Below the pieces are notes generated by a model. It did not search any database and had not been told where the DNA came from. It saw only the letters and a list, made by a program, of their open reading frames with translations. A program made the position numbers and the translations under genes. A stretch of DNA of 62,370 nt, filler included, from Sphacelaria rigidula (Eukaryota): NCBI GenBank assembly GCA_964200075.2. It is 11 parts of 11 records of this genome, joined end to end, with 100 filler letters (N's around TTAATTAATTAA, not from the genome) between each part and the next. Parts side by side here need not be neighbours in the genome. Positions count along the whole stretch, not along the records: positions 11,360 to 16,938 come from CAXNAA020026143.1; 10 more parts are not named here. The stretch is one strand, 5' to 3'. Position 1 is the stretch's first letter; every line of letters starts with the position of its first letter. Shown piece by piece: positions 5,900 to 42,933 of this stretch.

Positions 5900-8800
5900 G
5901 ACGACGCCAGCTGCCCTTTGAGAGTAATGCTCCATCGGGCGTGCCCCTTCCTCTTCAGATCGTTCCCTTCCTTCAACCTGGCATGATGAGGGTCACGCGA
6001 CGCTCCAAGATGGATCTGCAAGCTGTCAAGTGCTGCTATCTCAACAACGGCTGCAACCATTCATCCTCAACTGTCAAGGTCATCAAAGCCTCAACCGGCC
6101 CCGTCTGTTATACCAATAAGGTGGTCTGGACAGTGCCCCGTCCACCACTCCAACCATCAGCGCCGCTCGACGGAAGGTGGGGGAACACAGTAACACTAAG
6201 ACTTCAGCTTCCGCCGCCGCCAACTTGCCGCCGCACCACCATGCCTCGCAACCACATCATCCCGAACCCGCCGCCACCGTCTACAACCCGCCGCTGCCAC
6301 CAAACCATGCTCCCTCACAACCACATGCTTCCACCGCTGCCGCCAATTTGCCGCCGCCAATTTGCCGCCGCCACCAAACCATGCTCCCTCGCAACCACAT
6401 GCTTCCGCCGCCGCCAAACCATGCTCCCTCACCATTACATCATCCCGCACCCGCCGCCGCCGTCTATACCCCGCCGCCGCCGCGAAACCATGCCCACTCA
6501 CAACCGCACCACCATGCCGCCGCTACCGCCGACTTGCCGCCGCGCCGACGTCCTGCTCCATCACACCATATCGCAACCGCCGCCGCCGTCTAAAACCCGC
6601 CGCCGCCGCGAAACCAAACTATCCCACTACCGCAATCACATGCCGCCGCCGCCAACTTGCCGCCACCGCCACATCGTACTGGTCCGCGAACTTACTATCC
6701 CATCTCACCACGACCATATTATACTGCTCCGCTGGGACGACACCACAAACCTTCCAATCTCGTCCCGCCGCGACCTTTGAGTGTTTTTCCGCCGCGATAT
6801 CGACCTTATTATCCTATTTCCCCGCAACCGCAACATACTTTGCCACCGCCACTACGTCGCACACGCGTGCCACCACCGACATTCACACCGACTCGTGCGG
6901 CACATCATTCACCTCTACCTTCCGCCACATCGTCGGCACCACCACCATCCGTCGCCACGCGACACAAACAAAACCAGCGCGACATATGGCCGACTTCACC
7001 ACCCCAGCAACCTCATTCGCTGCACCGTCAACCAACTTCACCCTCGATTTTCAAAGGCTCTTTGGCACCATCATCCATTTCAGAGGCTTCATCAACAACT
7101 CACCATCTACAAGACCGCTCTCTGTCACCGTTGCCCGACAGGGTGGTAGAGGAACTTGACCTGAGCAGTGACCCTCGGCAACCGGGGAGGACCCGATCGG
7201 AGACGTCCCAGCATACAGCCGAGAGGAAGGGGGGCGACAGCATTACATTTATTCATCATGAGAGGGATCTTTTTGCGCAGCTCGACAAACCATCCCTTTT
7301 ATCCGCCCACTTGACGCGCTCCGCAATAGAGGCCGGACGGAAGCGACAGGGGGATGGGGCAGGGGGGCGCAAGGGTTTGCAAAATCGGACTGCGACTACG
7401 ATGGCAACGCGCGAGGACATCAACATAGCGATGAAGGAGGAGCGTCCGCCGCATGAACCACCTAGACTTCCCCATCGCCCAGTGAAAGAGTTGACCACAC
7501 CGAAGACGTACGCTGAAGCAATTCGTCCGGAACAGGGAGGAGTATGGGAGGACTCCATGGTGCGAGAGTTTCAAGACCTGAAGGAAGCGGGAACCATGGA
7601 TGCGGTAATATAGCAATCAGTAGATAATATCATTCCCGCGAAGTGGGTTTACAACTGAAAGGCTGATGAGTTTGGGTGGCCAACAAAAACAAATCAAGAC
7701 TGGTCGCAAGGGGAGATTGACAACGGGCAGACATTGACTGTGGTGAGTTATATGCAACTACAGTAGCGGTTTCGAGTGTACGATTGCTGACAGCACTTGC
7801 TTGTGAGCAAAATCTTTCGTTGCGCCATTTCGATATCGAGCAAGCTTTTGTGCAGTCCGTACTGGACGAAGATGTTTTTATGCGTTTCCCTCATGGCTGG
7901 GGTAATTTATCTGGTAAGGTGGTGAGACTCAATATACCACTATATGGCCTCAAACAGGCTTCGAGACGGTGGCATCTTCATTAGCAGGATGCCGTAGGAA
8001 TCAAGGTTTTGATCAGTGCTTGGCGGATTCGTGTGTGTTCCGACTGATGGAGGACAACCAAGTAGTGATCACCTTGGTGGTATATGTAGATGATATTTTT
8101 GCCGGAGGGGATGAGGAAAGGTGTGATAGATTTGGTGCACAGCTGAACACGATGGTTCTAGTCAAAGATCTAGGAGAACTGAGACGATATTCGGGACTAC
8201 ATTACGAGAGAAACTTGAAAAGGGGGACCCTCACTGTATCGCAACAGACTTTTGCAGAGGAGTTGGCGGAGGAGTACCACATATCATGGGGGAATAAGAC
8301 GCCTATGAGTGCAGGTGTAAAACTAGAGGATTTTAATGAGGATGAGCAGGTCACGACTTTCCCATTCAGAGAATTGGTAGGGTCACTCATGTGGCTGGCA
8401 AACCAGACTAGACCGAATATTTGTAACGCGGTGAGAGTGGTAGCGAGATATTGCGCATCCCCAAGGTTGATTCACTGGCGCACTGCTCGTGGTATACTTA
8501 GGTATGTTCGGCGAACGAGTACACATTGGGCATTACTTTTCGGAGAGGCAGTTTGCAAGGTCTCAGCTTTCAAGCATATGCTGATGCAGATTACGCGAGT
8601 AAGGCTGCCGATAGGCGATCAGTGTCGGGTGGACTAGTCACGTGCGGGGATGGATGTGTGTCATGGTTCTCAAGGACGCAAATGTGTGTGACGTTGTCGA
8701 CTTCTGAAGCAGAACACGTTGCAATGACCGACTTGGTGAAGGAGGTGCTATTTTTGAGGCAGGTGTCGGAATTCATGCTGCCTGAAGTTGGAGAGACGTG

Positions 8801-11810: not shown

Positions 11811-12067
11811 TGTAGACTTCTGGTACTCAAGATCAGATTGCCATGTGGACTCCTCCCATCACGGGCACATGGACTTTAGCAGCTTTAGTTATTCATATAT
11901 TAACCCTCAGCATAGTACAGGAGGACAGGACCATAGTCTCTCCCCACCATAGTAGCAAAACCGGCTCTACTAGTCATGGAGGTCACCATCACAGAGTCCG
12001 GCAATCAGACCCGCAACTCTACCTACAATGTCCCTGACCTTAGGTAACAATGGTGGCTAGGTCTACA
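11811..12067 (-). repeat. 3' LTR
   Basis: Direct repeat of 16023-16279 with a 7-bp terminal inverted repeat. Preceded on the minus strand by GAGAGCTTTGGGGTTGC (weak PPT). Confidence 0.93.
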
Positions 12068-14306
12068 GCAACCCCAAAGCTCTCTACTATCAACAAGTAG
12101 TCACATCAGAGCTTGACAAACTCAGACATCATTGGTTCCTGATAGTACCATTTTTTTCCGCAAAGAATATCAATCTCTTCCGCTGCTTTCGACTGCAGCT
12201 TTATACAAGCTTGCGCCACTTCCGAACAATTCGCAAGAGATTCAAGAAAATATCGCCCATCATGAACATGCAATCACGCTACTTGCACCACTTCGAGTTA
12301 AAAAGCGATAGCTAGCGCCAAATTCTCAAGTCTTCGCCCAGAACAAGTTTCTTGACTCTTCATCGGCACGAAACCGGAAATGTCAGCAAATGTCAAACTC
12401 CGGAAGATTCGTGACTCATCGTCCCTCTCATCCGAGACAAGGTACTTCTCAACATACAAAATGCACTTTTTGTACGTTCAACACCTGCGCGACGGAGTGC
12501 AACAGCCAAATGATACATCATCCTCACGCCAGAAGGAAATATGCACCCAACACGTCTGGAACGCACCTGGCCTCTTGCTTCTGAAACACCGTAAAAAACG
12601 TATGCATCGCATGCCTCCCCGCCGTCAAAGTTGCAATGCTTCAACTTGCCATCATTTCAGAAAAATAAGGGAAAGCCATGACTCAAACTGCTATTCAAGT
12701 CATGCCTACTAATCCAACGACGGCGAGCGGACGTCGACCTCCGCCATAATTGATCACCCCTCGTGAGCTCGTTCTCGAACTCTTGTTTTCGAGCAAATCC
12801 CAGACATTTCTATATCTCGTTTGGATCTTGGACCATCATATCTCATCCGTACATCAGCCAAAATGTAGAGATAATGATTTCCTCGACACTCTTGCAGTCC
12901 AACTACACCAGTTCTTTGAACAAAAGAACGCATCATCCACATGCTCCTTCTGACATGAACGAAAAACCAACCACGTGCTCGTTCAACCACGTGACGATCC
13001 ATACAAAAACGTGCCACGGTCAAAGATCATTGATGTATGAGCGCATAATGTCTTTATCTTCAACCACCGGAAGCACTCGCGTCATACCTGCTCACATACG
13101 ACGAGCCTACGCCTTGCGTACCTTTCAGCTCATTTTCACGCTAACAGCAGGGGTCACCGACTCCTACAGTCAGTACGAGCCTACGCATTTCGTAGTTTTT
13201 GCTCATTTTCACGCTAACAGCAGCAATCCATATATCCTGTATTCAGTACGTGGAAACCGCACAAATATGATCAGACTGTGTTCTGCGCGAACAAGATTAT
13301 ACGAGCTTCACTTCATTTAGCATACAGCAGAATGTTGAAAACTGCCCCACCCTAGGTCGTCACCAGACAACATTCATATCAGTACCATTCGAGCAAAACT
13401 CCGCACATGCATGCCAATATTTCACTCAGCACATGCAATGTCACCTTCCTCGCAGCAAACACCATGCATCGTCCGTGTCAACCACATCAGCACAACACAC
13501 ACATGTCAAATATCCACGTGTACGTCAGAGTTTTACCCTGCACACGCGATACGATCGTACTCGTTCAACAACCATGTTTCATGCGCAAACATGACCACAT
13601 ACAACACAATAACAAGCTGCAACCATTCTCAAAACGATTCGCGAATACCAGTCATAATGTGTTTCCTCATTCTCAACAAACACTCAATCACCTCAGCACT
13701 TGCTCCTCAACATCATCACCCAACTCGACGCTCACCACAACAACAAACACCTCAGGTAATACCTTCTTTGTAGTCCCCCAACCCGCTCCTGAGAAACAGC
13801 AGCACTCGAACCACAACCCCGTGCACAGCGTAGAGCAGCCTTTCCTCTCGGACACTACCTCCTTGCACCTTCAGTCTAGCTACACCTGGCACCCCCATGG
13901 GGTAGCTCAACACGCCTCTAAAAGGTATATTCGCACCGCCAAACAAATGCGACAAATCCTCCGCCCCCACAGATGCTTACGCATTCACGAACGCTCGTTC
14001 TTCAGCCGCTTTGACAGAGGAAATAAGAGGCGAAACGGGAACATCCATACAGTCCCGCACAGCAACACCTCCCTATGGCATCACGCCACCCTCCTCCAGC
14101 ACCTGACCGTACAGCGGCAAAGACACTGGAATCAACGCCGCCAAATACGCCAAACCTGTCCATGCATGCAGCAGTGCACACGACCACCCCAACACACGCG
14201 ACGCTCATCGTCGCCGTCAGAGTAGTGATCGCTAACAGCATCACAAGCTTGCAGCTCGCGCTGCGTACCCGCTTCGCGAGGGCCACACGCCTCTGTTGTT
14301 TCGATC

Positions 14307-14767
14307 ATGCAAGGCGTGTCCACAGCTACGCGCTGCTCCGGGGGCGATTCCGCCAACCCGGCATCCACCTGTCCTTCAAGCAGACACCCCTGCGAATCAT
14401 CTGAACGATCTCCCGCCGTGTCACTCGCGGAGATAGATTCACCATGAGCACGGCAAGCCCCAAGCTCACCCAGCTCGCTCGCCATACGCAAAAAACATCC
14501 CCCTGCAGCTTCGAGCATGCAAGGCGTATCCACAGCTACGCGCTGCTCCGGCGGCAATTCCGCCAACCCGGCGTCCACCCGTCCTTCAAGCAGACATCCT
14601 TGCGAATCATCTGAACGATCTCCCGCCATGTCAATGGCGCAGATAGATTCACCATGAGCACGGCAAGCTCCTAGCTCACCCTGTTCGCTCGCAATACGCG
14701 AAAAACACCCCCCTGCAGCTGCGAGCATGCAAGGAATATCTCCAGCTACACGCTGGTCCGACGGCAA
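14307..14767 (-). repeat. 210-bp in-frame tandem repeat (about 2.2 copies, 70-aa unit)
   Basis: ATGCAAGG unit starts at 14307, 14517 and 14727. ORF 14132-14881 repeats GELGACRAHGESI..AGDRSDDSQGCLLEG.VDAGLAE.PPEQRVAVDTPCM. Confidence 0.92.
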
Positions 14768-15058: not shown

Positions 15059-15637
15059 CTATGTCTCCTTCCCGCTCTGCACAGTGGAAACAGCTGCGCT
15101 GCATCGTGGTTTAAAACGCGCAGCACCTACTGCACGTTCGGCGGGTGCATTGTCATGCCTGTTCCCTGGGGCAGACACATGCTTCTCGGCTTTCACAGTG
15201 CAATGCGCCGCACCGGACGGCGCATGCTTGCGCAACGCGAGAAGCAACTGTTCGTCCTCAACATCATAATTATGTTTCAAGAACGTGTCACACAGACATT
15301 TCGCAATATGTTTCGGCATGAGCTCAGAAACTGCTGCCACCTCAAAGAGGTTTGTCCATCGCGCGTTCACCTGATCTACATCTCGCAAATATTGCTCGTA
15401 TTTGCGTAAACACTCGGCTGATTCGTCGCTCGAAAACTTGCGGCCGCAGTACGGAATCTCCAGCGCCAGTACAGGAACAACACGACCATCGACGATGACA
15501 TATTCCTGCGCCTCATCCATTTCAGTCAGTAGTACAGCACTCCACACGGCCTTTTTTGAAAAACGAAGCCGCCTCCCACTCACAGGAACAACAAATAATC
15601 TTTCCTTACCAATACGCGCTTGGCCACCAAACGACAA
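15059..15637 (-). pseudogene. Gypsy gag N-terminal region
   Basis: IPYCGRKF..YEQY..V..VN..ELMPKHIAKCLCDTF aligns by eye with LPEYGRVF..YRDY..V..SN..ELVPKHIQNCVSDTY at 27525-27797. Confidence 0.8.
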
Positions 15638-16010
15638 TGGCCACAGCGCCTCTTCCTCACGCAGGTCTCACCACGTGTTTGAAGTCCTTAGACTTCTCTT
15701 CCTGGCCATACATGGCCAAGCGTGGAACAAGCAACTCTCGCTGGCTTCACCAGGCAGTAATCGCCCCACTTTTTTGGAACGCTCACGGACTCGCCAGCTA
15801 TCGATGAACGCCCCGCACCTCACGCACGAGCGATACCACAGTCCGCCCTAGCACTGCCTCAGAACCTCCTCGGCTCTACTTCTCCAACTCCTCGCGTCGG
15901 TAACACGCCTTGAGCTGGTCTTGTTTGCTGCAAACTGATCAAGCCTGCAGACTTCCCTATCTTGAAGTATCAGCTGCTTTTAGCGGACCTACTACTCGTC
16001 AGCGGACTCA

Positions 16011-16022
16011 ATGAACGTTCAT
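16011..16022. promoter_or_regulatory. Palindrome at the PBS position (ATGAACGTTCAT)
   Basis: Directly abuts the 5' LTR end. With LTR bases it forms the 16-bp palindrome CAATGAACGTTCATTG (16009-16024). No TGG-type tRNA PBS. Confidence 0.75.
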
Positions 16023-16279
16023 TGTAGACTTCTGTCACTCAAGATCAGATTGCCATGTGGACTCCTCCCATCACGGGCACATGGACTTTAGCAGCTTTAG
16101 TTGTTCATGTATTAACCTTCAGCATAGTACAGGAGAACATGACCATAGCCTCTCCCCACCAGAGTAGCAAAACCGGCTCCACTCGTCATGGAGGTCACCA
16201 TCACAGAGTTCGGCAATCAGACCCGCAACTCCACCTACGATGTCCCTGACCTTAGGTAATAGTAGTGGCTAGGTCTACA
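16023..16279 (-). repeat. 5' LTR
   Basis: Direct repeat of 11811-12067; lies upstream of gag. Confidence 0.93.
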
Positions 16280-16938: not shown

Positions 16939-17038
16939 NNNNNNNNNNNNNNNNNNNNNNNNNNNNNNNNNNNNNNNNNNNNTTAATTAATTAANNNNNN
17001 NNNNNNNNNNNNNNNNNNNNNNNNNNNNNNNNNNNNNN

Positions 17039-17114: not shown

Positions 17115-18645
17115 CAGTCGATCGATAGCCGATGGCAATTACAATAGATACACTTCGTTCGCCATCGATGGAAATCGTGTACCGCAATAGATGGGATGTA
17201 GATATCGATGGCCATTGCCGTGATCAACAGATTTGGTGAGCCATCCATCGATGGTCATTGCCTTCATCAATAGACTTGGTGAGCCATCCATCGATAGTCA
17301 TTACCGTCATCAATAGATTAGGTAAGCCATCCATCAATACCTACTACCGTCATCCAGCAATAGATTTGGTGAGCCGTATATCGGTAGCCTCTGCCGCCAA
17401 CAACACATTTTTGGATATCTATCAATATGGTCATTGCCGTCAACAATCGATAGCCAGTGACGCTAACGATAGGTTTGAAATAAATATTGCTCACTGCAGT
17501 GGTCCGATGACATCAACGGCAATGCCTCTCACACATGAACACGCAACTACCTGAGGCGATAGCTGGCCACAGCTTCTGTGGAATAAAGTGGAAACATACA
17601 TAGAAATATGTGCATACATAGCGCTAGTGACCGACACTATTCAGCTACTTTAGTGATCACCAATAATAGATATCGGTGGGCGCGATTCAGATTGCATTGT
17701 GACCAGCGATATACATCGGTGGCCGGGAATTCAGATGTTATTGTGACCCTCGATAGACATTGGTGGGCGCAACTTAGATCCTGTTGTGACCAACAATATA
17801 TATCGGTGGTCGCGTGGCAGATTCTATTGTGATCAGCAATATATATATTAGTGATCGCAATTCAGAGCCTACTGCAACAAATAAAATATATCGATAGACA
17901 ACTTGGTCCCTCCATTGTCACGGCAATGATACACCTGTCTCTTGTCCCGAATCCATTGTCGCCTACAATAACTATCGTTGATAGACATTATTATTGATGC
18001 CAGTCGATTATGACTGATGATGAACATTGACAGTCAATTTTTCGGGGCTATTGTAGCACCAGTGTCCTGATATAGTCTATTGTCCAGGGTATAAGCAAAT
18101 CTCACCCACACACAAAAGTACCGTGAGTGCTCATGTCCATCAGAGGGACAATCATAAGTTCTAACACCACACTTACAACAAAATATGTAATTTTTTGTCC
18201 ACACATATTAGGGATTCCTACAGAATACGAGCCTTCCAAAATTGTAGAAACGTGACGTCATATATTCACAAGCAGTACCATCATATACCCACTGCATGTA
18301 TACCTGCGGCTTGTCTACCGTACTTTAAACGGAGTATGATATGCTCTATGCGTGGTATGTTGTAATGTAGGTGCGGCAAGACGACATAGAATATCCATCG
18401 GTAGACATTGTATACCACAGTAGATTCTGGTATGTATATATAAATCGATTTTCATTGCCGCCATGCATGGATTTTGTACCCAATATATCGATAGCGATTG
18501 CGGCCATCAATATATTTGGTATACAATCTGGCAATAGCCATCGTCATCAATAGATTTGGCACGCGGTATATCGATAGCCATTGCTATCATCAGTAGATTT
18601 GGAGAACTATCGATCGATACATTTGGTCGGCCGCAAAAGATTTCG
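17115..18645. repeat. Three degenerate ~43-bp tandem arrays with an ATCGAT/ATCGGT core
   Basis: Units such as ATTTGGTGAGCCATCCATCGATGGTCATTGCCTTCATCAATAG at about 17115-17472 and 18390-18645. Units TGTGACCAGCGATATACATCGGTGG...AGAT at about 17650-17915 look like the inverse. Confidence 0.7.
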
Positions 18646-22820: not shown

Positions 22821-24252
22821 TCAGAGCTTGAACCCATACTCAGCCAGCAAACGCGCCCGTACCTGCTTTGTTAGTCGCAACTTACGCAATGCAGAACGTA
22901 CAAACTGCGGGGCTCCTTCCAAAATGGTTCTCAGAGGCTCCCACGAGCTCTCATCCTTGCCGAAACCTACCCATTCCACGTGTACAACGAGACCCTCACC
23001 GTCTTGAGCCCCGGACAAGTCAACGATCGCCTCCATCTCGAATTCTCCTTGCGCAAACGCATACTGGAACACTTCCTTCAGATCCGCAGTGACCGCCAGC
23101 TCCGTGTCCGCGTAGTACCGTAGACGGGAGACATGCGCGTCCTTCACCTCTCCGTTGACGATATTCTGAATCTCGTACACATGTTGATGCTCCGCTGCCA
23201 CGATCCTCCGCGGTCCTGTCCACGTACTTACGAGGTTTGGCGTTGTACCTGAGCGCCTAACCCTCGCAGCCAACACATAGTCACCCACCATGAAATTTGA
23301 CAACTGTCCCTTACTAGCTACACGTCGTTGCAGTTCACTAGTCTTCTCAACATGCTGCACCACATCCTTGTGCAACGCTTGCTGCGCCTCCACGACTGAC
23401 GCCACCTTCTCCCGCAGCATGTCCTCATCCAGCACATCAAGTCGCCATTCGCTGCGAGTCGCCGATGCCAGGGTTGAAAAACTTGTGCGCGGCGCCCGTC
23501 CAAACATCACATGGTATGGCGTACTGGCGTAGCGCTCGCGGAATGCTGTGTTCAATGCCCACTGTACGGCAGGCACCAGTCCTACCCAATCATGAATCTC
23601 GCAGCATGGCCTTCAAAGTGCGGACAACCTCTCGCATTACCCTTTCACACGTACCATTGGACCACGGCGAGTTTGGAACCGCGAACCTCCTGTCCAGCTT
23701 CAGCGCCTCCTCCAATGCTCGCATCACATGGCTCTTAAAATGCGATGCGGTGTCACTAACCCTGACCTCCGGCGGGCCCAACGCCTTGCACCACGCCAGC
23801 AGATACTGCACAGTTGCTGCAGCTGTACACGACTCGGTGGACTCCAACCACGCGAAATTGCACAGATCATCCATCAATAAAAATGTGTACTTGTACCCGT
23901 CGCCTTCATCCAGGCCGCTCTCGCCCAGCGGGCCACTTTCGCCAACGTACAGATAATATAAATGTATTACCTCACCGGGCCGTGTGCCATGCACTGTCTC
24001 CCCTAGTAGCCGCGGAACCATCTCACCCGCTTTCGAGTCCGTACAATGCAAGCATTTCCTCACAAAATCCGTCACATGAGCTTCCATCTGAAACCAACAG
24101 CAATACTCTTGCAGCCGCTGCAGTGTCGCCACAACACCCCGATGACCCGCCTCCTTCATGTGAGCACACACCATCAAGCGTGTTTGCAGCTCTTTTGCTT
24201 GCGGCGGGATCCACAACAACACATTCCGCCCTGCTACATGCACGCGAAACAA
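22821..24252 (-). pseudogene. Gypsy integrase with C-terminal chromodomain
   Basis: CAHMKEAGHRG..CLHC zinc finger; VSDTASHF; PWSNGTCER; WTGP; EMEAIVD..VEWVGFGKDESSWEPL. Frameshift near 23580. Confidence 0.95.
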
Positions 24253-24449
24253 ACCCTTACCGTCTTTTGAAACTCGCCCAACAGCTGCTGCAAAGGTAGG
24301 GCTCCAGCATCCATCACTCCAAACCCGGCTTGAGCCTGCTCTTGGGCCTCACGAATAGCGTTCTTCGACGGCTGCGTTTCATCAGGCTGACCGCTCGCAA
24401 ACACGGCCGCAGCACGCCCAGACACCGCCGGAACGTTTACCTCCCTTGA

Positions 24450-25914
24450 CAATAAATCTCCCCAGCAGTTGCGCTCACCAGCAATGTGCCTGATGGAGTA
24501 ATCATACTGCCCGAGCACAGCCCGATTGCTCGAGCATCTAGGCAGCAGTCTTAGACACGGATGCAACGCAGGCCTCGGGGTCAAAGATGTATGCGAGGTT
24601 ACGATGATTGGTAAAGATATGTACCCCACCCCAGAGAAGATACTCCAACCTACGGAAAGTACCTACCATTGCATAGCCTTCCTTGTCCATCGTAGCCCAT
24701 CGAACCTGCGCTCCACGAAACGCCCCGCTAAGAAACCCCATCGGCTCATGGCTCATGTCTTCCACCGCCAATATACCACCCAGCTCATCCTCGGGCACCT
24801 GCGTAATAGAACTGCCCCAGTGTAGATCCGATGCGTCTGGAAACATGAAAACCTCATACCCCTGCTTGGAATATGACAGAGCGACGGCATGCGCCACCAA
24901 ATCTTGGGCCTCGTGCCACGCCTGAGCACGCCTGGACGTCCATGCTGACTCCTCGATTGTCCGGTTTGACGCCATTCGCTTGGTACGGCGCACGGTTCCC
25001 TGCATGTGTTCCTCCAGTAATACCCGCAGCGGCTCCACCACCTCCGCCAGACGCGGCAGGGACGTTCTCAGCCAGTTTACCGCCTGCAGGAACTGCATAA
25101 GCTCGCCTGCTGTGCGCGGGCGCCTAAGATTGGCCAACCCGCTCAGTCTCTCGCGGTCATGAGCCACTTGACCACCTGAAAAGACCTTTCCGCACCACGT
25201 GATCTGTGTGTCGTAGAACATGCCCTTGTGCGCAGCCGCATAAAGACCAGCATCCTCCAAACGGCCAAAAATCTCGTGAAGTGTACACAAAAGATCATCC
25301 TCATCTTTACCCCACCACAAGATATCATCCACCCATACTTTGCACTGAAGTCCGGTCAATAATCCTGTCATGATGCCCTGGAAGTACCCCGTCGCATTCA
25401 ACACCCCTTGCGGCACCCGTATGGGAGTAAACAGACCTTCGGGAGTCGCGATCGTGAATATTTCTTGTGCATCAACCGCCAACGGCATCTGCCAGTACCC
25501 TCGCAGCATATCAATCTTGCCAAAACACGCAGCGCCCAGCAGGTCGATCATCTCCGCCTCGTGGTTAGGCATAACATTCGGAACCTTCTCAACTTGCTTG
25601 TTTACCGCGCGATAATCACTCACCAGTCGATAACCGCCCTTCGTCGGCGTCGCCATGGCCGCACTCGCCCACTCCGCCTGCAAGCTGCGAAAGACTAGCC
25701 CATGCGCCACCAGCGTTGCCATACACCCCGCTAACCACGTTGCCTTTACAGGGGAATACACCCGCGGGCTCGCCTTGACTGCCCTAGCCCCAGGTTTGAA
25801 TCTCACCTTCAAGGGCTCTACTCGAGCAGGCGGATCACCGCGCAGTACTCGCCGAAAAGCGTTGGCACGGCGCCCAACAACCTCCCGAAGCTTATAAACG
25901 CCGCTCGCCGACAT
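24450..25914 (-). pseudogene. pol: Gypsy reverse transcriptase and RNase H
   Basis: YRLVSDYRAVN, KIDMLRGYWQMPL, RVPQGVLNA, KVWVDD, FPDASDLHWG, W..MDKEGYA, FTNHRNL, HIAGERNCWGDLLSR. Confidence 0.96.
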
Positions 25915-25929
25915 ACTCTTGTCCGCAGC

Positions 25930-26520
25930 CGCCTGTACTGCATGATCCAGTGCACAACACGACGCTCTGCCAGCTCCTCCTCTGGATTCATGTCCATCTC
26001 GGGACCACGCGATATCAATCGCTCAACGGAGGGATCCACGGGCTCCTCCTGTTCACCTGGATCCTGTAACGCCTCAATCGCAATGCTCACACGCCTACAT
26101 TCTCGGAATTCAGGCGTATCTGCACCTCTCACTAACGCGTGTCTTGAGCGTGCGCATGCGTCCAGCCCACTGTACACGTCAATGCCCATGGCTTCCAGCG
26201 TACCGCTTCCGAGGATCAACACATCATCGGCACCTGGCATAACTGCATAGTGACACGGATCCAACACCATCGGCCCCCAGCTGGTGTGCAGAGCGGTGCG
26301 CACTAGACACGTCTTCGACTGCATACTCTGTACATTACCATCAGTTAGTTTTACCGGGTGTGCACGAGCCATACTGGTGACAACGGACACATCAGGGAAC
26401 ACTGCTTGAAACTGGGCCGCCACCTTTTCAGACATGACAGTGATGCCAGCCCCCGAGTCCAAAACTGCAGTAACAGGGCAGACGTTCTTAACTGTGGAAC
26501 CTGGAACGGACAAGTCTGCC
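25930..26520 (-). pseudogene. Gypsy aspartic protease
   Basis: AVLDSGAGITV..VLILGSGTL. Confidence 0.9.
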
Positions 26521-26548
26521 CGGCAGCATCGCTGCTTGCGGTCAACTA

Positions 26549-27797
26549 TTACACCCTCAGCCTGTAAATCTGTAACCTCAGCGGTGTGCAGACCCCGCCA
26601 TACCGGAATTGTCTGAGACGTCCACTCCTGAGCCGGTCACGCCGCCAGTTGGGTTTGAGCTGCAGGAGCTGGAGCGGAAGGCTGGGGCGGCACCATGCCA
26701 TCCGCACTACTCGCACCCCCTTGCGTTCCATCCCCTGGGAAAACAGCCCGTGTGGGAGCAGGACCTTTACCGCCCCCCCGCTGACCATGGACCTGCTGCT
26801 GCTGCTGCTGCTGCGGCGGCGGCGGCGCGGCGGCGACGACGTTGCTTGCCCACCGGACGCACTCACCGCGGCCGCAGGTGTGCTCTGTTTGGGACAGTCC
26901 TTCTTGTAGTGACCCTTATCTCCACACTCAAAACAACCTGCATAGCTCGCACCAGGTTTGTGGGGCTTTTTCGAGCTCTTACCGCCACTACCTGCGCCGC
27001 CAGTACCTGTTGCGGCGGCCGCAGCCGCAGCGCCGGCATACGATGTCAGTTTCTTTTAGCCTGGTGAGCCGCTTTTTTGCCTAAGTTGCGGTTGCCGTCG
27101 GCGGTGTTTGTCAACCTCCTCAACAGTTTTCCATTCTTCCGCCAAGTCACGAGCTACCTCATAAACCACTTTCGGGCTCTCTTTACAGTCTATTTTCATA
27201 TAAATTATAGTTTGAACTTTATTCTTGAACTCAGGTGGGATCAGGCCGGCGACCATAGCTCTGATAATAATGTGTGCTGGACCAGCCTTGAACGTACGGT
27301 CAGATTCAAGGAAAACGCTCTCGGCACCTGCGTTTTCCGCAAAGTACTCCTGTAATGAGCTCTATTGCCCTTCTACTCGACCCATTGCAGTTGGTTCAGA
27401 CCGTGCGGCAAGGGCCTTTTTCACGCCTGCCGCAGCTTCGGAAGGATCAAGTTCCATATCGACCCAGCAATTGGCATGGCGTGCAATCCCTTGCTGCAAT
27501 TCGTCTTCGTCGAGTGGCGACCCGTCAAAAATAGGTGTCAGACACGCAGTTTTGTATGTGCTTTGGCACCAACTCTTGCATGGTCAAGATTGCACACTTT
27601 ACCGACCGGCCTTGGTTACTTTTCCCCACTGCCTCCTCATAGTCGCGATACCTTTGGTAAAAGCGTCTGGAAGCTTGCTCCCTGAATACTCGCCCATATT
27701 CGGGCAATTTCAAGGATCCACCCAAGGTCAATTCGGTTACTGCAAACTTCACTTCATCAACCGTCCCGCTGGTGCCCCCTTTCCTTCGCGCTGCCAA
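26549..27797 (-). pseudogene. gag: Gypsy gag with CCHC zinc knuckle
   Basis: Fragments at 27525-27797 and 27056-27256; CFECGDKGHYKKDC at about 26892-26936; frameshifts. Confidence 0.85.
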
Positions 27798-27963
27798 CCT
27801 TCCAACAGCCTCCTGTCACCGCAGTCGCCTTGGATTCGTGTGGCCTGCGCCTCTCTCTACGCCGCTTCTCCCCCCCCCTGCTATTCAAGGTGAGCGTCCT
27901 CACGTTTTACAAACAGTCGGGTGCGACGTCCAAAACCCAATTCAGAAACGACAAGTTTCCTGA

Positions 27964-27975
27964 ATAAACGTTTAT
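27964..27975. promoter_or_regulatory. Palindrome ATAAACGTTTAT at the inferred PBS position
   Basis: Abuts TGTGAAC (27976), the inferred LTR edge, with the same geometry as 16011-16022 | TGTAGAC. The LTR boundary cannot be confirmed. Confidence 0.55.
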
Positions 27976-28396
27976 TGTGAACCTGCCTGCAATCAGGACA
28001 AGGTTACAGTGCTGCTCCAAACGCTTCCTCCCAGTCACGGGCTCCAGAGACTTCAAGACTTCAAGCAGTTATACAAACGGCAGTCTTCGTTAACCAGAAG
28101 TAAGCTTCACGGGCTTTCCTCACGAACACGATATATTACGCATCCAATAGTCATCCTCCAAACAATCAATCCAGGATCAGCCGCATATCTACATATTGCA
28201 TGGATACTGTAGGTGGACTACCTACAGAACTGTTTCGCATAAGAATCGACCACAAAGAAAACAGTTCTTCCGTTTGAAATCCTGACTCTGAATCTGNNNN
28301 NNNNNNNNNNNNNNNNNNNNNNNNNNNNNNNNNNNNNNNNTTAATTAATTAANNNNNNNNNNNNNNNNNNNNNNNNNNNNNNNNNNNNNNNNNNNN

Positions 28397-37640: not shown

Positions 37641-39108
37641 AAAAAGGAACAAGGAAAAAATCAAAGAGGGTCAAACAGTATGATACAACAGACTTATTCG
37701 TAACAAAAAAAGGGTAATGAAAAAGTCAACACAAGCAAAGCACAGAAAGAATTGGACGACCTCAAACAAAAAACGGAAAATGAGAGGAAATACAGAGCAA
37801 ATAAAATAAAATACGACACAACGATGATTTTTGATCGATTGATTGTCGATTCAGTCGGGTCCGTTTCCTTCTCCTGGCGACTGTCCTTGCGTACACTGTA
37901 TTGCCCTTCACCTCCGATGCAGGGCGGCACTCGCTGCTCGGTCGGAGTCCCTTCAGCTCAGCAATTTTCATTTCGGAGGTAGCAAGTATTCTATTCGATC
38001 AGGTCTTCGATTGCAAAGTGATTTTTCACGAACCACGTGTTGAAGCTTCGAGTGTGACCGTGGTTTCGCCAACTCCTTGATGGAAAGGATGGCGCGACAT
38101 CTGGGGGGCAGTGCTGAGGACGCTACAAATTGTTCAGCGATACGGGGTGGGCATCGAGAACACCGTCTCGTTGAACTGACTTTGTCCCGGCGATGGTATT
38201 TAATAATGTGGGATCTCTAACACATGTTGAAAAGACAACAGCTGCTGGCAAAGTCGTTCCGCGAGGAAAGTCAGCCCAACAGAGCGGGATAAGCGTGAGA
38301 GAGAACATGGTATCGGGGGAGCCGGTGGTCACGTCTCCTGCAATACCATGGCCAGTCAGCTACCATCTTCAGACGACTATGTTCCAGGGATGTGTACGGA
38401 GGAAATCGCGTTTTGTCCTTGCTCTGAGATCAACAGTAAAACAAGTTTGACGCAAAGAAGGGCAAATAAAACCGCTGAAGATGACGAGGAATCAAACCAG
38501 CGTGTTCGCGTTGCAAAATATATCGTCCTCCTCCCTCAGGAGCCTTGGAAAAACAAAAACGCTGTTTGAAATTCGTGATATATTCGTACGGGTTTCGCTG
38601 TAAGTCCGTAGCAGGGGCCGTCATACGAATCCGTTCAAAGCGGAACGTACCCGGATCGAGTCCCCGTACCGATAACGTTGTCGTGTTCCCTCTTTTACTC
38701 ATATTTCGTATTAGTCCCGACGCTACAGTCTTCAATCCGTAAAACCACGGTTTGATCCGCGCATGTCCCTGCAATTTTCCTCAGCCCTTGAAGCGAAGAT
38801 AGACGTGGAATCATTTCCCATCGGAAACACACACGATACACCGCTGGCAGCGTAGGTCGGCGTTTTGTGTTGGAGGCGCAGCATGCCGATCGGGAAGCTT
38901 ACCTTACTTTCGAATTTGGCAGTCGGTGTCGTGTTTCCAGACCCTTGGTATATGTTTTGGCGATATCTCGACAACCGCTAAGCCGATTCGACCGCAAATC
39001 GTACAAAACGACGCGTCACGACGAGGCGCGTGACGTGGATGACTGCAGGTAATGTGAGTATGACATTAACGACCGGGATCAAATTTTTGTGTTGGAGACA
39101 CATCACTT

Positions 39109-39531
39109 CGATCGTGAGATGATATGGGCTGGAAATTGATGGCCGCATGAGAGGGACTGGGGCCTCGAAATTGGCAGTGTGGTCGGAGTTCTGTGTTGAA
39201 GACAGAGCGTGTCGATCGTGAGATGATATGGGCTGGAAATTGATGGCCGCATAAGAGGGACTGGGGCCTCGAAATTGGCAGTGTGGTCGGAGTTCTGTGT
39301 TGAAGACAGAGCGTGTCGATCGTGAGATGATATGGGCTGGAAATTGATGGCCGCAAAAGAGGGACTGGGGCCGCGAAATTGGCAGTGTATGTCGGAGTTC
39401 TGTGTTGAAGACAGAGCGTGTCGATCGTGAGATGATATGGGCTGGAAATTGATGCCCGGAGGAGAGAGACTGGGGCCGTGAAATTGGCGGTGTGGTCGGA
39501 GTTCTGTGTTGAAGACAGAGCGTGTCGATCG
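39109..39531. repeat. 104-bp minisatellite, 4 copies
   Basis: CGATCG unit starts at 39109, 39213, 39317, 39422 and 39526; copies are highly similar. Confidence 0.96.
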
Positions 39532-42668: not shown

Positions 42669-42933
42669 CAAGGGTAGGTCGAGTAGAGTATAATCAATAC
42701 TCAGTATTTTTAAAGAGTCATACTTCTAGTGCTCGAAGTTTGAGTAGAGTATTTGAGGTCGTATTCGACCTACTCCAAATTTGAGTAGAGTATTTGTGGC
42801 TGTACTCGACCTACTCCAAATTTGAGTAGAGTATCTGAGGCCGTACTCGACCTACTCAAACGTCGAGTAGAGTAAATACTCAAGTACTGTACTCGAGTGC
42901 TCAAAAGTACGTACTCTACTCGACCTACTCTTG
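42669..42933. mobile_element. hAT-type MITE (265 bp) inserted in a (CAA)n tail
   Basis: 22-bp TIR CAAG(G/A)GTAGGTCGAGTAGAGTA; AACAACAA on both sides; internal ~39-bp tandem repeats. Confidence 0.88.

Follow-up and report, generated by a model that had tools for sequence, protein, structure and literature searches.

The start of reverse transcription is a defining character of LTR retrotransposons, and the known routes comprise priming by a tRNA, by a half-tRNA and by Tf1-type self-priming (known priming routes are listed in PMC5371799). A palindromic site at the primer position has a published precedent in the fungal GalEa elements of the Ty1/copia superfamily, in which the Conserved Hairpin Site (CHSeq1), a 9-bp sequence directly after the LTR, is palindromic together with the last A of the LTR and has a complementary partner downstream. 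The authors of that report found no fitting priming model (PMC5445492), and an explanation for the GalEa palindrome has been lacking since 2017. In the chromoviruses Tf1, Tf2 and Tj1, sushi and Tcn1, the 5' end of the transcript serves as the primer (PMC4600332, PMC6317226). The dictyostelid Skipper chromoviruses are described as lacking both a tRNA site and an LTR complement, and a novel form of self-priming has been proposed for them (PMC5006619); TRIMs without a primer-binding site have been noted in bivalves (PMC6934838). The full-text literature searched, a body that lies outside subscription journals, Repbase, GyDB and supplementary files, describes no primer site of palindromic form for Gypsy elements or for those of brown algae or oomycetes, and PMC10886601 and PMC4202319 gave no match by term.

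The DNA analyzed here, referred to as the window, is a stretch of 62,370 nucleotides from Sphacelaria rigidula, in which 11 unrelated contigs of equal length (~5.58 kb) are linked by runs of N that have a TTAATTAATTAA core and recur every 5679 bases (e.g. 16939-17038); pieces that adjoin across these spacers are not genomic neighbours. The corresponding genome assembly comprises 244 Mb in 27,214 contigs, one window piece being a whole contig. One of the contigs carries a 4.47-kb element, designated family A, whose 257-bp 5' LTR has TGTAGAC...GTCTACA termini and an edge that is set by a second copy at 12067-11811 (93% identity), as the first-pass annotation of this DNA had stated. Equally in keeping with that annotation, the 5' LTR (16279-16023, minus strand) is followed directly by ATGAACGTTCAT (16022-16011), and no TGG-type tRNA site is present at the 5' LTR edge of the window copy. 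The same annotation had drawn attention to a perfect 16-bp palindrome, CAATGAACGTTCATTG, which is indeed present at 16009-16024; as a conserved unit it was rejected, since the 16-mer is perfect in just 3 of 30 family-A and 1 of 30 family-B copies and is thus specific to individual copies. The conserved unit is 14 bp long and in family A consists of the last A of the LTR, ATGAACGTTCAT and a closing T; the 14-mer is perfect in 15/30 family-A and 17/30 family-B copies (both comparisons used the best 30 of 40 A copies and the best 30 of 41 B copies). The features of both elements are collected in the table. Elsewhere in the window, other contigs contain arrays of 41-183-bp repeats (17219-18643, 39078-39531, 42732-42874 and 6211-6667).

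Table. Positions of features of the family-A and family-B elements in the window (a point marks a feature given without strand)
Feature	Position	Strand	Basis or remark
14-bp palindrome in primer-site position, family A	16010..16023	-	sequence and copy comparison
16-bp extension, copy-specific (3/30 family-A copies)	16009..16024	-	copy comparison
5' LTR of family A, 257 bp, TGTAGAC...GTCTACA	16023..16279	-	second LTR copy
gag-like frame, 202 aa between stops	15059..15667	-	matches gag of autonomous relatives at 30-33%
two tandem 210-bp units (89%), internal region of non-autonomous element	14285..14704	.	
polypurine-tract-like stretch ending GGGG(T/G)TGC	12068..12087	-	form common to families B and D
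3' LTR of family A	11811..12067	-	93% identical to 5' LTR; without target-site duplication
14-bp palindrome, A + ATAAACGTTTAT + T, autonomous-type family B	27963..27976	-	
5' LTR of family B, about 251 bp	27976..28226	-	start by eye; loose ends 27976, 28221-28227
zinc-knuckle and aspartyl-protease frames of B, broken by stops/frameshifts	25818..27055	-	
RT and RNase H frame of B	24538..26022	-	PF00078, PF17917, PF17919
integrase and C-terminal chromodomain frames of B	22821..24348	-	PF17921, PF00665; PF00385 below curated cut-off

The sole coding content detected in the family-A element is the gag-like frame, which has no Pfam match. When six polyproteins were compared by tblastn, the window copy gave no match to RT, RNase H or integrase, and matches to the pol region at two of six other loci fall outside or beyond the family-A part. 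The LTR pair of the window copy lacks a target-site duplication, the flanks reading GGTC vs CCCT. Because gag (30-33%) and the form of the polypurine tract are shared with element B, LTRs are present and pol was not detected, family A appears to be a non-autonomous, gag-only member of the element B lineage that would depend on families such as B for RT and integrase. At one locus (L024/L025, G000:C2072:8749-8779) a 17-bp tandem duplication repeats the family-A palindrome.

Element B, an autonomous-type chromodomain Gypsy element on another contig of the window, has ATAAACGTTTAT at 27975-27964, directly after the LTR end at 27976. This edge is set by two-LTR family members, and heterogeneous loose contig ends fall at the same position in two public runs, in 10 contigs of one and 5 of the other, compared as assembled contigs, which carry neither RNA ends nor strand. 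The gag sequences of A and B are 30% identical over 63 aa (E 1.5e-6), which bears out the earlier description of a gag-homologous relative with ATAAACGTTTAT in the same geometry on an independent contig. The domains of element B stand in the Gypsy order PR-RT-RH-IN-chromo, with a zinc knuckle in addition; the chromodomain at the C-terminus of the integrase (PF00385) scores 23.8 bits (E 4.3e-5) against a cut-off of 25.1, and a chromodomain is on record for close relatives (e.g. P0002 and P0017). Element B and its relatives have the Ty3/Gypsy traits of TG...CA LTRs, a polypurine tract and the arrangement PR-RT-RH-IN; most two-LTR relatives are 5.75-5.97 kb long, and 4 of 8 such copies have a 4-bp target-site duplication. 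By RT, the named close relatives are from Ectocarpus, at 63% identity, in keeping with a probable brown-algal host. Two family-B copies are arranged in tandem, 5712 bases apart, on another contig of the genome (G000:C3161). Two insertions within this pol frame mark a 29-row subgroup, a basic, RTKR-like one in the RT thumb/connection, ahead of the connection tryptophan, and one of 10-12 aa in RNase H (window 24538-26022); the basic insertion was discarded as a correlate of the palindrome, being missing from a palindrome-bearing 8-row subgroup.

An RT search of the genome, with 150 of 1770 candidates scored and 40 loci fetched, extended the comparison to four families that carry four perfect palindromes at one position: ATGAACGTTCAT (A), ATAAACGTTTAT (B), ATATCGATAT (C) and ATATCTAGATAT (D), among which there is a symmetric 2-nt change in length. 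The RTs of families C and D are 55-63% identical to that of B, and LTR edges in these two families are set by second copies (L063, L055, L067). A first pattern count, 126 vs 64 in the reversed control, is a weak test, as the control is itself high. Patterns anchored in the flanks, which leave the palindrome core free, gave 31 matches vs 0 in controls for A, 41 vs 2 for B, 174 vs 0 for C and 63 vs 1 for D, the core being perfect by eye in 18/31 (A), 19/41 (B), 24/63 (D) and, for family C, in about 57/100 among the matches listed (of 174). None of the family copies compared has a TGG site, and no intact member with a normal tRNA primer-binding site was found, the observation named beforehand as contrary to tRNA-independent priming. 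Within families, palindrome and flanks decay alike (0.964 vs 0.959; 0.952 vs 0.935), and the deviations in family A and B copies are scattered, one-sided changes at the flank rate, as expected of copies decaying after insertion.

Several other features of these loci were noted in passing. The LTRs of families A-D share, by eye, a GCC(C/A)GTG...TGG...GGAGTCC-like motif about 45-65 nt before their end, which survives in LTRs that are otherwise unalignable and possibly represents the start of R. In the same four families (window 15960-16090; L032, L057, L059) a short U5 hairpin ends ~7 nt before the LTR end, and the nucleotides immediately following the palindrome are able to base-pair with U5, an arrangement reminiscent of U5-IR and U5-leader stems. 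One family-D 5' LTR is preceded by a polypurine tract, in tandem elements (L066), and a family-C copy is interrupted, about 1340 bases upstream of RT, by a 90-bp perfect inverted repeat (L053) that is possibly an assembly artefact. A same-genome outgroup was formed by 20 other Gypsy RT loci, 18 of which had a match to B, at 25-30% identity, and the LTR edge could be fixed in a minority of the 20. Two of them (L212 and L214) read CA and then TGG, and a CA-led palindrome common to two others (L220 and L226) was dismissed as a primer-site palindrome on account of its position inside gag. About 2650 bases upstream of RT, L212 (G000:C8932) contains a tRNA T-arm-like GGTTCAAATCCC, ~30 nt before the apparent LTR end, after which the TGG-type site follows.

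An RT-RNase H alignment search of metagenomes and MAGs brought in 91 loci, of which 28, distant relatives with RTs 27-45% identical, have at least 1.8 kb upstream of RT and were scored. An ACA whose last A opens a palindrome of at least 10 bp is present in 20 of the 28, vs an expectation of 0.58 from dinucleotide shuffles (maximum 3 in 100) and 7 of 87 stretches in a coding control; five pairs among the 20 positive loci are near-duplicates. Three further loci are positive at the 3' side of apparently permuted contigs. The strict pattern is missing in five of the 28: L204 reads CCA, and L130, L169, L175 and L203, the last being too short, are without any. The LTR edge was set independently in families A-D, L128 and L187, and a polypurine tract followed by TG...CA was recognized by eye in L138, L168 and L202. 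The shuffles, the coding control and the flank-anchored controls together rule out a chance origin of the palindromes. Overall, the palindromes comprise 20 distinct sequences, 10-16 bp long and with 24% GC, which have 10 different 4-nt centres and are all self-complementary. On the left they invariably begin at the final A of the LTR; a closing T, which the search did not force, is present in 22 of 26 matches to ACA plus palindrome, and the next pair outward extends the symmetry in 5/20 loci, which is the chance level. It is symmetry, not sequence, that is conserved at the primer-site position, and the conservation of symmetry to which the first-pass annotation had looked is thus borne out across 20 different palindrome sequences. 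In a quick tree of 54 rows, built without Tf1 itself, the palindrome bearers fall within a 37-row group (SH-aLRT 89), and the one named fungal row (P0042) lies outside it; as this group is made of two subgroups (SH-aLRT 96 and 100), a single origin of the palindrome bearers is not proven. The search of viral contigs found no relatives. Contigs assigned to bacterial MAGs (L201-L211) encode these Gypsy polyproteins, with up to 69% identity, and their bacterial titles probably reflect eukaryotic contamination of bins.

Minus-strand synthesis of LTR elements has to begin at the U5 edge, and for the palindrome at that edge no partner emerged other than a further copy of itself; on these grounds we infer intermolecular priming. 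We give a probability of roughly 0.55 to the reading that this Gypsy lineage is independent of tRNA and uses the palindrome as its primer-binding site, the primer being the same sequence on a second element RNA. The two packaged RNAs would pair through the 10-16-nt palindrome, and one of them would be cleaved immediately 3' of the closing U; the RNase H domain is the probable nuclease, since in Tf1 this domain reportedly cleaves an RNA duplex. On the partner RNA, the final A of U5 would then base-pair with the closing U, which RT would extend into U5-R. Since the new DNA would be complementary to the R-U5 of the primer RNA itself, RNase H could shorten the long primer until the palindrome alone is left, and the shortened primer would give plus-strand strong-stop DNA a natural stop. 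The plus-strand strong-stop DNA would thereby copy the palindrome, and second-strand transfer would anneal two reverse complements of it, for which symmetry through the centre would be required. The tests of tRNA complementarity, primer-binding site and symmetry came out in favour of the tRNA-independent priming that had been proposed earlier for this locus, the priming step itself being predicted from sequence. Several observations speak against the intermolecular model, among them the weakness of some duplexes, local folds that bury the palindrome, decay within families at the pace of the flanks, and the five outside loci without the strict pattern. The predicted self-duplex energies of the palindromes of 24 elements range from -4.4 to -16.6 kcal/mol, AATAATTATT being an example of a weak one (-4.4 kcal/mol), and in predicted local folds the palindrome is often buried in other stems. 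Furthermore, inspection by eye of the matches listed (235: 31 A, 41 B, 100 of 174 C and 63 D) revealed no second, compensated palindrome within any family, so that the mirroring of mutations predicted by the priming model is without support among them.

Priming might instead proceed by fold-back, in which the RNA cut after the palindrome would hairpin with its own 3' end onto U5 and a second, uncut RNA would provide the copy of the primer site needed in second-strand transfer. The products would be the same, and central symmetry cannot separate the two mechanisms because second-strand transfer needs it in both. Hairpins are predicted for 3 of the 24 palindromes taken alone (5-bp stems in two, a 4-bp stem in one), at -0.9 to -1.8 kcal/mol, whereas the remaining 21 form none and the 10-nt palindromes allow at most 3-4 pairs. 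Fold-back is therefore unlikely, and of the two options raised in the first-pass annotation, intermolecular pairing fits the energies better. We also consider it improbable that the palindrome is a dimerization or packaging signal comparable to the retroviral DIS, the primer coming from elsewhere (another RNA or a protein). A self-complementary DIS is well established, for instance in SL4 of MMTV (PMC8096270), the comparison was raised by the authors of the GalEa report (PMC5445492), and palindromes specific to each family would sort RNAs by family. Against it, the DIS is described as lying in a loop, in addition to the primer-binding site (PMC5445492), and the palindromes in the MMTV primer-binding site are reported to be dispensable for dimerization (PMC8096270). 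In the elements studied here, the palindrome occupies the primer position with an edge that is exact to the base, and no other primer site is found nearby.

Dimeric DNA-binding sites typically have dyad symmetry, and the palindrome could in principle act at the DNA level, as the target of a protein dimer, be it integrase, Gag or a host transcription factor, or as a structure of the cDNA end. The symmetry fits such a site, but sequence and length vary freely (20 sequences, 10-16 bp) while symmetry stays, unlike what is seen in a protein site, and priming would be left unexplained; we regard this reading as very unlikely. A primer derived from a host tRNA half, or from another small palindromic host RNA, is less probable still. 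Priming by half-tRNAs is known in Copia lineages (PMC6317226), and the tRNA set compared, obtained by an Rfam search with 63 of 16541 candidates scored, is an incomplete one of 58 distinct sequences, many of them organellar; in that set, however, none of the four families has a tRNA complement above chance, the longest being 7 nt in each, a length reached by 129-161 of 200 shuffles (shuffle mean about 7). The match to a tRNA fragment that had been named earlier as a possible outcome thus did not emerge from these 58 sequences. The expected primer sites of the 23 tRNA rows on nuclear contigs all begin with TGG, and four palindromes in one genome would call for four palindromic host RNAs. Self-priming of the Tf1 type, in which the transcript would prime with its own 5' end, would suit the chromodomain and the absence of tRNA-type sites, as in the Tf1/sushi group, but is scarcely credible: across 24 elements, 15 of which were scanned with 299 nt of sequence upstream, the longest complement in the LTR measures 3-8 nt, short of the 10 nt that PMC6317226 takes as its criterion.

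Among described systems, GalEa, as reported in PMC5445492, resembles the present elements in the lack of a tRNA primer-binding site, in a palindrome that directly follows the 5' LTR and includes its last A, and in the lack of an LTR complement. GalEa belongs to the Copia superfamily, however, whereas the elements described here have the Gypsy order PR-RT-RH-IN-chromo and a 4-bp target-site duplication in half of the two-LTR copies examined (4/8); its palindrome is 10 bp long and exists in two main forms, in contrast to 10-16 bp and a wide turnover of sequence here. The GalEa partner, CHSeq2, lies 12-41 bp downstream, whereas no consistent or conserved downstream partner was found here (z <= -2 in 3/24 elements, within 60 nt downstream). 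With the Tf1 group the present elements share the chromodomain Gypsy organization, a probable independence from tRNA and an element RNA as the likely primer, as well as a U5 hairpin and U5-leader stems, which are predicted nearby; the primer-binding site of the Tf1 group is described as not palindromic (PMC5445492), and the palindromes here are without an LTR complement. Skipper is likewise a protist chromodomain Gypsy element reported to lack a tRNA site as well as an LTR complement, but it has a polypyrimidine tract (PMC5006619) where the present elements have a palindrome. The retroviral DIS, as described for MMTV (PMC8096270), is similar as a short self-complementary RNA able to join two genomes, and differs in that it forms a loop beside a normal tRNA primer-binding site, whereas here the palindrome replaces that site.

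More broadly, and tentatively, at slightly less than even odds, the palindrome bearers may constitute a deep, eukaryote-wide Gypsy lineage with a third priming route (two RNAs, with a primer cut and trimmed by RNase H) and a family-specific pairing code, GalEa having come to the same route independently. The palindrome motif would also mark elements that LTR finders dependent on a primer-binding site would score as incomplete. If intermolecular priming is the true mechanism, RNAs should have 3' ends at the closing U, strong-stop DNA should carry a palindromic RNA of 10-16 nt, and symmetric swaps should bring rescue. Twenty natural and fully symmetric variants, fixed to the base at the LTR edge, indicate that pairing, not sequence, is under selection at the site where these elements may begin reverse transcription.
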